From Escherichia phage vB_EcoM_G2540-3: a stretch of 64,000 nucleotides of DNA. Below, piece by piece: positions 15,890-18,739 of this stretch. The stretch lies in the sequence record MK327944.1; one strand, written 5' to 3'. Numbering within the stretch: position 1 is the first letter of the stretch; the number at the start of each line of letters is the position of its first letter. Made by a program: the position numbers and the translations under genes. The notes under the pieces are model-generated. The model made no database searches. It saw only the letters and a list, made by a program, of their open reading frames with translations, and had not been told where the DNA came from.

Positions 15890-15893
15890 CAAT

Positions 15894-15923
15894 GGGGACC
15901 GAAAGGTCCCCATATTTTTATTT
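15894..15923 (+). terminator. Intrinsic terminator after gene 54 (ggggaccgaaaggtcccc plus T-run)
   Basis: Perfect hairpin followed by tttttattt. Confidence 0.65.
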
Positions 15924-16208
15924 ACGGAATGAAATGAAAGCAGCAACTGAAGCAACTAAACTGTCTTCAATATAAACTTCAATTTTTACCGGAGCTTCTG
16001 ACTCAAATTTACCTGTTACTACACCCTGAAAAATACTTTCAGTCTGTTCTGGCTTTGAAAAATTTTCAGAAGGAAAAATTCCAAACTTTTTATCTGTTCC
16101 GAAAATTTTGATAAATTCATCATAAACTGCTTCATTAAAAGCATTATCAGCAGGAATAACGCCTTCAACTACAAGTTCTTGACCTAAAAAGCGTAAAGAA
16201 GATTTCAT
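15918..16208 (-). CDS. Hypothetical protein (alt.-3 position)
   Basis: 96-aa ATG ORF with SD gagga; preceded by promoter/leader cassette identical to the one upstream of alc. Confidence 0.6.
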   Translation of the reverse strand: MKSSLRFLGQELVVEGVIPADNAFNEAVYDEFIKIFGTDKKFGIFPSENFSKPEQTESIFQGVVTGKFESEAPVKIEVYIEDSLVASVAAFISFRK

Positions 16209-16209
16209 T

Positions 16210-16262
16210 TTGTGTTCCTCATGTTATGTCAGTAAGACTACTATAACACAACACGAGGGACT
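16210..16262 (-). promoter_or_regulatory. Early-promoter-like cassette (GTTTAC…TATAGT) with leader and SD; 53-bp identical copy of 29508-29560
   Basis: Minus-strand reading gtttacaagtccctcgtgttgtgttatagtagtcttactgacataacatgagg; identical at both loci. Confidence 0.55.
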
Positions 16263-16626
16263 TGTAAACTACATTTTGAACTTTTTAGTACGCGTAATAG
16301 GCATGCGTCGATTTTATACTGTTTCATTGTTTGAAGAGCAGTATCAAAAACAGCATTAATGACACCAATTGGATTTCCACCCAAGTTTTTAAGCTTAACT
16401 AATGATAGTTTCTCATTAACACCTATCATTACGATATGCATCATTTTATCGCCCGGCTTAACGTTTTATTCGTATCACCGCCAGAGGTGTATGTACAAAA
16501 TCTAAATCCAGGAAGCACGCTTTCTTCGCCGGCTTGAATAGCAAAAATTTGTGGTATTTTATGCTTAGGATTTAAGTTAACAACCGGCGCCGAAGCGCCG
16601 TCAAATAATTCTGTAATAAGTTCCAT
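16241..16626 (-). pseudogene. Decayed partial copy of the alt 5' end (Alt N-terminal ~130 aa, internally frameshifted)
   Basis: Two ORFs (61 and 67 aa) in different frames that align with Alt residues ~2-62 and ~64-130. Confidence 0.6.
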
Positions 16627-16629
16627 GAT

Positions 16630-18739
16630 TTATCCTTGAACGAACTTGTAAGGCATGTTTGCAATATCTATGCAAGACGCAATAATTCCAAGAGATGATT
16701 CTACTTTCTGTTTAACATTTGATGAAACAAATGATGCAAAGTCAACTCTATCTTCTATATCACCTGTCATTGTAACCAATTCACCAGTTTCCATTAAACG
16801 GTCACCGTCATAGATTACCGATTCGGTGAGTTCTTCTGTGGTCATAACTTCAGCTTGAATAAGCTTGTTGTTAGTTCTAACTGTTCCATCGTTGTAAGAT
16901 GCATCGGTTATTTTATTAACTTTGACCATTAATCCACGTGGCAAAATGACTTCCATTTCATTTGAAGGCGCTAAACTTCCACCGGGTAAAACAACATTGA
17001 CCTTATCAGCCCCAGTAATAACCCGCTAAACTTCCACCGGGTAAAACAACATTGACCTTATCAGCCCCAGTAATAACCCATCCAATTCCAACTAAATTAT
17101 CGCTAGAATTTACTAGTCCTTCATCAGTTTTATCAATAGAAACACTTAGACGCTTTTCGTCTGGTAAAACACCTATAGATGAATCAGTCATCCAAGTACC
17201 AAAAATATTTGGATATAATGATGTTGACACAAAGTTTCTAAAATAAAAAACTCGATTTTTTACCATTGCTTCATATATTGAAGGTAACATTCGTTGTGAA
17301 CGATACAAAGTAATACCTTTTGGTAATCGTTCACCATTTTTAAAGGCTGAATCTAAATTATCAATGGCTTGTTCTATTTCAGGTGCTGTTAAAATACTTG
17401 TACGCTCATCTGGATTATATAATCCCAAAAGAGCATTATTTATGTCTACATATCCTGAACCTACATATTCACGAATTCCGCGTTTTTGCGCTGGTGTGTA
17501 TTTAGATGAATCTTTATTTTCGACTATAGGATGTAATGACCATCCAGCGGTAAGAGCATATCCACGTAATTCTCTTCGAATAATCTTTGTTTTTATTGCA
17601 TTCCAAGAATTTTGCACTAACTCATTATTCGCAGCGTCTTGATTTAAATGCGAATGTCTGTTAATATTTCTTTCAAACCAGGCACCTTTATATTTTTCTA
17701 AAGTATCATCGACGATAGAAGCAATAGTTTCTAAAGTTTTTATTGAAGTAATAGATTCTTTTCGTAATTTTTCTAAAGCTTTATTTTTTATTTCTGCATT
17801 AATAATGGATTCTTTATCTTCAGGAATTATAGAAGCTTCTCTGAATGCCATCCCAGCTGTAACACTGCTAAGAGCATTCTCTAGTGCAAATCCTGAAGTA
17901 GAAATTACCGTTAATTCATTAGAATCAGAAATTAAAGGCGCGTCCGCTGGTTTATTTAATTCTGCCGCTGAAGCCTCAAATTTTTGAAACATCGGTGTTT
18001 CAAATCTAGAAGATTCCAATGACTGACTTTGTGCAATTGCTCTACGGGAAATTTTAACTTTAACGATTACAGCTTGGTCAGAACGTTTATCATTTTCTTG
18101 TGCAATAGATGCTGCAATTGCCTCATTTTTAGTTACTTGAGCTCCAGTATCTTTATTGATATAAACATCACCGACCTTCGATTCAACTTTAGTAAAGAGC
18201 TCGGTACTAATTTCCGGAACCCCTGGAATGTCTTCTAGTGATACATTTTTGCGATGTATAAGAATATATGCATACTTTTTATCATAATCCCAGAGTTCCT
18301 TAAGAAGGACGTATCTGCCACCTGAACGACTACGGATAAGTCTATCAGCAATAACTTGAATTTGTCGAGCTTGGCCAGCAGTTTTAGACTTAAGAATACG
18401 AAGCATACAAGCATCAATTTTATACTGACGCATTGTTTGCATTGCAACAGTAAAAACCGAATTGATATAATTAATTGGGCTTGGACCAAGACCTTTCAAT
18501 TTAGCAATTGAACCTTTAGCGGTTAATGTAAAAGGAACAATATGCATCATTTTATCGCCCATCTTTAAATCACGATTAGTATCACCTCCAGATGTATAGG
18601 TACATAAACGAAAGCCTGGTTGTTCAATTGCGTCATCAACATGAACTGAAAAAATTTGCGGTATTTTCTTCTTTGGATTTAAGTTTGTAATCGGAAGAGT
18701 AGTATCTTCGTCAAATAATTCTGTAATTAGTTCCATCAT
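16630..18739 (-). pseudogene. alt: ADP-ribosyltransferase Alt, interrupted by a 55-bp tandem duplication (577-aa N-part plus 108-aa C-part in shifted frame)
   Basis: Removing one 55-bp copy restores one continuous ~684-aa frame (…VVLPGGSLAPSNEMEVILPRG…), close to the 682 aa recalled for T4 Alt. Confidence 0.8.
16970..17079. repeat. Perfect 2 x 55-bp direct tandem repeat
   Basis: gctaaacttccaccgggtaaaacaacattgaccttatcagccccagtaataaccc occurs twice back to back (16970-17024 and 17025-17079). Confidence 0.9.

Follow-up and report, generated by a model that had tools for sequence, protein, structure and literature searches.

The alt.-1/alt.-2 interval of a T4-like Escherichia phage as a very probable pseudogene remnant of a second alt-like ADP-ribosyltransferase gene

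Gene alt of bacteriophage T4 encodes gpAlt (phrog_802, PF03496), a packaged RNA-polymerase ADP-ribosyltransferase. Between alt and alt.-3, on the same strand, T4 has two small genes, alt.-1 and alt.-2 (NP_049810 and NP_049809), of 61 and 67 codons respectively and joined by an ATGA overlap, and in the T4 records AF158101 and NC_000866 a note on both traces them to an old duplication of the first part of alt. That alt.-1/alt.-2 and alt are homologous is already known and has been part of the T4 annotation for more than two decades; our literature search on the subject returned only the paper of Nolan et al. 2006 (PMC1524935), in which alt.-1/alt.-2 are listed among the alt paralogous duplications. 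At the orthologous locus phages T2, T6, RB14 and RB32 have a second Alt-like ADP-ribosyltransferase (685 aa) with the same MELITE N-terminus; in the annotation of RB14 and RB32 this full-length second gene is itself called 'alt.-2', and it is referred to here as alt-2.

The window, a stretch of 64,000 nucleotides from Escherichia phage vB_EcoM_G2540-3 (MK327944.1), comes from a T4-like genome (Tequatrovirus) that over the region is nearest to phage vB_EcoM_112 (e11/2), with T4 98-99% identical. Its minus strand reads, in order, gene 30 (DNA ligase), alt.1, alt, a 61-codon ORF, a 67-codon ORF and alt.-3, after which gene 54 comes next on the plus strand. The genes at the centre of the comparison are the following:

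16630..18739, minus strand: alt, the upstream paralogue, split in the window into ORFs of 577 aa and 108 aa
16441..16626, minus strand: alt.-1 ORF (61 aa, MELITELFDGAS...), from the ORF map and BLASTP to Alt
16241..16444, minus strand: alt.-2 ORF (67 aa, MMHIVMIG...), from the ORF map and BLASTP to Alt
15918..16208, minus strand: alt.-3 (96 aa, DUF5498), the intact downstream neighbour (Pfam PF17602, E = 1.4e-64)

From 16241 to 16626 (386 nt), nucleotide identity is 100% with e11/2 and 98.4% with T4. Compared with T4 alt.-1/alt.-2, the two small ORFs have the same position between alt and alt.-3, the same strand, the same codon numbers and the same ATGA overlap, at 98-100% nucleotide identity and with nothing material different beyond a few substitutions; judged by sequence and layout, they are T4 genes alt.-1 and alt.-2. 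Searches of Pfam and NCBIfam gave no match for either ORF. PHROGs returned a full-length match for each, phrog_23015 for alt.-1 (E = 1.7e-46) and phrog_15247 for alt.-2 (E = 8.8e-50), both labeled "unknown function", and the Alt-like family phrog_802 was also matched, at positions 2-59 by alt.-1 and 64-120 by alt.-2.

With the window's own Alt ORF (17006-18739) as BLASTP reference, alt.-1 aligns with Alt residues 2-58 (36/57 identical, 63%, E = 5e-24) and alt.-2 with Alt residues 64-118 (34/55 identical, 62%, E = 9e-22), and at the DNA level the interval and the alt 5′ end of the same genome are 68% identical over 344 aligned positions. The Alt-like feature that the sequence-only reading had picked out at 16241-16626, two ORFs resembling the Alt N-terminus, is confirmed as real and statistically secure. 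That reading had the similarity extend over about 130 residues; the similarity holds and its extent is about 118 residues, the final 12 residues of alt.-2 (SKCSLQVPRVVL) having no counterpart in Alt. Set beside T4 Alt, the interval thus shares a paralogous N-terminal region at 62-63% protein identity and lacks the catalytic domain, PF03496 being present in RB14 Alt-2, RB14 Alt and the window's Alt and absent from the alt.-1 and alt.-2 ORFs. The PDB contains no Alt structure, and only a weak similarity of the catalytic domain to CdtA was seen there. The alt ORF of the window opens with two ATG codons (18734-18739; MMELITE...), the second of which corresponds to the annotated start in T4 and RB14 (MELITE...). 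Precomputed annotations of database homologues list PF26846 over the Alt N-terminal region (window 18017-18736), where a local Pfam search of the same sequence reported no match.

Comparison with other T-even genomes, one of the checks proposed with the sequence-only reading, showed that T2, T6 and RB14 carry an intact gene for 685 aa at the position of alt.-1/alt.-2. In RB14 and T6 this 2,058-nt gene sits between alt and alt.-3, and it is intact and of equal length in all ten full-length copies sampled (RB14, T6, T2, phiD1, KIT03, Nami, BCPEco_001, G10400 and two IMG/VR contigs). A tblastn search with the second Alt-like protein returned 402 records at 90% identity or more, all of them Tequatrovirus-type T4-like phages. 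RB14 Alt-2 contains the ADP-ribosyltransferase domain PF03496 (E = 9e-20), its R, STS and ExE motifs can be spotted by eye, and it is 42% identical overall to RB14 Alt, with the first ~238 residues far better conserved; about half of this N-terminal region conserved between the paralogues is held by the window interval. A sensitive DNA search with the 386 nt matched 557 phage records, and in about 70% of the rows sampled the match was confined to query positions 40-386 and lay under a feature annotated as an Alt-like ADP-ribosyltransferase. Scanning IMG/VR yielded 8 loci, and a homologue search with the N-terminal 240 aa of Alt yielded 5 matches. A third alt paralogue, suspected from the three places matched per record, was discarded: the third place is the far side of a deletion, where the 3′ end of the full-length second gene aligns with query positions 1-44. 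Among the matches is a 48-nt stretch at the record end of MG010123.1 (Staphylococcus phage SAJK-IND, 31849-31896) that is 97.9% identical to window 16241-16288; this T4-type stretch looks like contamination or a chimeric assembly.

On the partial-duplication account, the first ~390 bp of alt would have been copied just downstream, and the copy would later have gained a stop codon together with a new start codon. This is how the T4 records put it, the listing by Nolan et al. points the same way, the sequence-only reading likewise took the interval for a partial paralogous duplication of the alt 5′ end, and the match to only the first ~118 Alt residues is what a partial copy would give. Against it stand, in the first place, some 400 relatives with a full-length gene at the same locus: over the first 347 nt of that gene, identity to the interval is 95-98% for most records and 93% for the most divergent one sampled, versus 68% for alt. 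By this measure the interval is a paralogue of alt and not a copy of it.

The 3′ tail of the interval speaks to the same question. Deletions between short direct repeats are a well-established spontaneous class in T4, classically in rII. When the window is compared with RB14 by BLAST, positions 17506-16280 match the 3′ part of alt and the first 348 nt of the second gene, and positions 16288-15880 correspond to the final 20 nt of the second gene followed by the spacer and alt.-3. The two segments overlap by 9 nt at 16280-16288. The overlap is a single copy of a 9-bp sequence, CTAAAAAGT, which in full-length genes (RB14, T6, T2 and others) occurs at nt 340-348 and again at nt 2039-2047, 1,699 bp apart; both repeats were found in six of the ten full-length copies. 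The part deleted is nt 349-2047 of the second gene. Two features of the window mark the event:

16280..16288, minus strand: deletion junction with the single 9-bp repeat copy CTAAAAAGT, from the BLAST segment overlap and the junction sequences
16269..16271, minus strand: stop codon (TAG) of the ancestral full-length gene, now read out of frame (RB14 ...AAGTTCAAAATGTAG)

The 39 nt past the homology match the last 20 nt of the full-length gene plus downstream sequence and, the fusion being out of frame, the SKCSLQVPRVVL tail results from reading through the gene's former final codons, its former stop and the spacer. Compared with the gene of T2, T6, RB14 and RB32, the window copy is missing 1,699 bp, among them the entire PF03496 catalytic domain, and carries a frameshift as well. 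An identical junction is present in all 15 truncated copies sampled, and an 81-nt junction probe matches without a break in 89 of 470 records and in separate parts in the remaining 381, the short (T4-type) form being the minority state at ~19% of Tequatrovirus records. As in the T4 short-direct-repeat deletions, the same 9-bp repeat lies at both breakpoints and one copy is kept at the junction; unlike the laboratory deletions, this one is a natural, fixed polymorphism in ~19% of sequenced Tequatrovirus records. A tail that matches the 3′ end of the full-length gene and the sequence downstream of it, and a direct repeat that marks both breakpoints, both count against a partial copy of alt.

The frameshift was located by DNA alignment, in which the interval lacks one base about 20 nt upstream of ATGATG, reading AAT-AAAACG where alt has AATCGTGAT. 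The two features concerned are:

16464..16467, minus strand: frameshift site, a run of four A (AATAAAACG), from the alignment gap at column 160 from the ATG
16441..16444, minus strand: ATGA, in which the alt.-1 stop (TGA) overlaps the alt.-2 start (ATG)

Five A (AATAAAAACG) are found at the same site in the intact genes of RB14 and T6 and in the truncated copies of FL44, SYGD1 and fPS-90. The ATGATG that opens alt.-2 encodes the native Met-Met of Alt-like proteins, residues 63-64 in the window's Alt ORF, and RB14 Alt-2 reads ...GDKMMHIV... at this site. No new start codon was therefore needed, and one lost base accounts for both the alt.-1 stop and the "new" alt.-2 start: codons 1 to ~54 of alt.-1 come from the 5′ end of the ancestral alt-2 gene, the 7 codons that close alt.-1 (TLSRAIK) follow the lost A and are out of frame, and residues 1-55 of alt.-2 are ancestral Alt-2 residues 62-116. 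The proposal of a frameshifted paralogue of the alt 5′ end is in this respect borne out, one missing base separating the two frames. The partial-duplication account, which calls for a new start, is contradicted here too, and we regard it as highly improbable. The interval is instead the product of a 1,699-bp deletion from a full-length gene, and the companion suggestion of the sequence-only reading, descent from a gene for a second Alt-like protein, agrees with the intact gene of the relatives. We also weighed programmed frameshifting at the A-run and discarded it: AAT-AAA-ACG does not make a slippery heptamer, transcriptional slippage needs a longer run than four A, and even a product with the frame restored would have no enzyme domain.

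With an intact orthologue at the same locus, a repeat-flanked junction, lesions that differ between lineages and relaxed purifying selection, 16241-16626 is very probably the pseudogene left over from a second, once complete alt-like ADP-ribosyltransferase gene, alt-2, that is intact in most Tequatrovirus. An older whole-gene tandem duplication of alt would have produced two full-length paralogues. Slipped or illegitimate recombination between the two 9-bp CTAAAAAGT repeats would then, in one of the lineages, have removed the 1,699 bp and joined the first 348 nt of the gene to its last 11 nt in a different frame. The 128-codon ORF left behind would have no catalytic domain and would extend through the alt.-3 promoter. 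With selection lifted, separate copies would have gained separate disabling mutations and, in the lineage of T4, e11/2 and the window, loss of an A from the A5 run would have created the TGA overlapping the native ATGATG, and with it alt.-1 and alt.-2. The repeats make slippage or illegitimate recombination the likely mechanism, and parsimony favors a deletion over an insertion as the direction of the event.

The truncated copies differ in the lesions they carry:

Deletion only, 128-codon ORF intact: FL44, SYGD1
A5-to-A4 frameshift only: window, T4, e11/2, Geo, two IMG/VR contigs
GAA-to-TAA stop at codon 6 only: fPS-90
Stop at codon 6 and frameshift: JEP6, slur03, Lutter, ESh30
Stop, frameshift and 9-bp deletion: F1
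Stop, frameshift and second frameshift inside alt.-2: PD112

Stop and frameshift thus occur in each of the four possible combinations, which points to recombination or to repeated loss of an A from the run. Among class-private variants in codons 1-116, the truncated copies have 5 synonymous versus 9 nonsynonymous or stop changes and the full-length copies 17 versus 1 (Fisher p = 6e-4), and pairwise pN/pS is 0.10 for truncated versus 0.02 for full-length copies. These figures suggest that purifying selection is relaxed in the truncated copies; we take the test as supporting and not decisive, because the sequences are few, related and recombining.

Transcription of the interval involves its downstream neighbour. 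Inside the tail of the alt.-2 ORF lies a predicted promoter for alt.-3:

16240..16268, minus strand: predicted sigma-70/T4-early-type promoter for alt.-3, from sequence match

Its elements are TTTACA, a 17-nt spacer, TG and TATAGT (10/12 matches plus extended -10), it is the best-scoring site in the region, and the annotation of phage Lutter has a promoter at the same place. In time-resolved omics of T4, alt.-3 RNA is early and alt.-1 and alt.-2 RNA middle, and Alt.-3 protein is detected, early, whereas neither Alt.-1 nor Alt.-2 protein is detected (PMC9697503, Table S2); the difference between early alt.-3 RNA and middle alt.-1/alt.-2 RNA is in keeping with a promoter at 16240-16268. Any larger deletion would have taken this promoter away, and it is probably the sole part of the interval still functionally constrained. 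The adjoining alt.-3 gene (15918-16208, DUF5498), whose likely promoter thus lies in the alt.-2 tail, is the gene in which mutants with a C-terminal extension let T4 escape the CmdTAC defence system (PMC11618068). Between the convergent gene 54 and alt.-3, a GC-rich hairpin with a 9-bp stem (15892-15913) scores as a terminator on both strands, and terminators are annotated at this site in e11/2 and fPS-90.

However they arose, alt.-1, alt.-2 or both, or else the unsplit 128-aa form, might be working small proteins now, one possibility being a prohead-protease-cleaved N-terminal Alt fragment that enters or competes for the capsid, made from translationally coupled ORFs. Several observations lean this way and count against a pseudogene: alt.-1 still has a reasonable ribosome-binding sequence, AAGGA, 8 nt ahead of it, as well as the MELITE propeptide motif at its N-terminus, alt.-2 is set for translational coupling through the ATGA, both frames are open in T4, e11/2, Geo and the window, the 128-aa ORF is kept in FL44 and SYGD1, alt.-2 is open in 14 of the 15 truncated copies, and the region is transcribed, with middle-class timing in T4. 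They are outweighed by the codon-6 stop in alt.-1 (7 of the 15 truncated copies), the frameshift inside alt.-2 in PD112, the 9-bp deletion in F1 and the excess of nonsynonymous private variants, and further by the failure of T4 proteomics to detect either protein, by a stub amounting to half of the ~238-residue conserved N-terminal region, and by an alt.-2 whose last 12 residues are read-through of the ancestral stop and the promoter. We consider working small proteins very unlikely. Shotgun proteomics misses small proteins easily, so that one or both peptides may nevertheless be expressed; on the pseudogene reading the stub would yield no functional protein from DNA that is still transcribed in T4.

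The alt gene of the window has a lesion of its own, a perfect 55-bp tandem duplication (16969-17023 and 17024-17078, minus strand) that throws alt out of frame shortly (a few codons) ahead of its catalytic Glu-x-Glu motif and gives the 577-aa and 108-aa ORFs. None of 111 matching phage records carries it, and no microhomology of more than 1 nt was seen at its ends. With alt-2 reduced to a stub and alt split by the 55-bp duplication, this genome would encode no intact Alt-type enzyme. The sequence-only reading had also proposed that the locus is duplication-prone; this claim is weak, the event at 16241-16626 being a deletion and the 55-bp duplication a separate lesion. Compared with RB14 alt, the alt gene of the window is a mosaic, its 5′ 870 nt being 94% and its 3′ part 79% identical, with a middle of ~420 nt (~17506-17930) that gives no nucleotide match, and in different phages the truncated alt-2 allele adjoins alt genes of at least three lengths (2,049, 2,052 and 2,094 nt). 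Mosaicism and varied alt lengths beside one allele point to recombination across the locus.

The MELITE with which alt.-1 opens is identical to the hexapeptide that T4 Alt loses by cleavage according to its record (X15811.1 mat_peptide), and it is at codon 6 that 7 of the 15 truncated copies have their stop. The retained MELITE, taken together with the cleavage of these six residues from T4 Alt, suggests that the ancestor plausibly encoded a second processed, packaged enzyme; the idea of the sequence-only reading that a second packaged protein may once have been made here is supported to the extent that relatives have the gene intact. A speculative reading, to which we would attach only a slight probability, is that an N-terminal stub is still made and enters the prohead or competes with Alt for packaging sites, or that loss of alt-2 was itself selected. 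In the first case the stub (alt.-1 with its MELITE, or the 128-aa form as in FL44 and SYGD1) would tune the amount of injected ADP-ribosyltransferase; in the second, loss might for example avoid a host defence that senses a second injected enzyme, and could explain the occurrence of a single deletion allele beside two different types of alt allele.

The finding is a refinement within otherwise ordinary biology: it corrects the T4 database note, in that alt.-1/alt.-2 are the stub of a whole second alt-like gene, and PHROG families 23015 and 15247, as pseudogene fragments, could be re-annotated. T4 is then the exception among T-even phages: an additional Alt-like ADP-ribosyltransferase, probably injected and still present in T2, T6 and most relatives, has been lost from it, and work on phage ADP-ribosylation conducted in T4 only misses this second enzyme.
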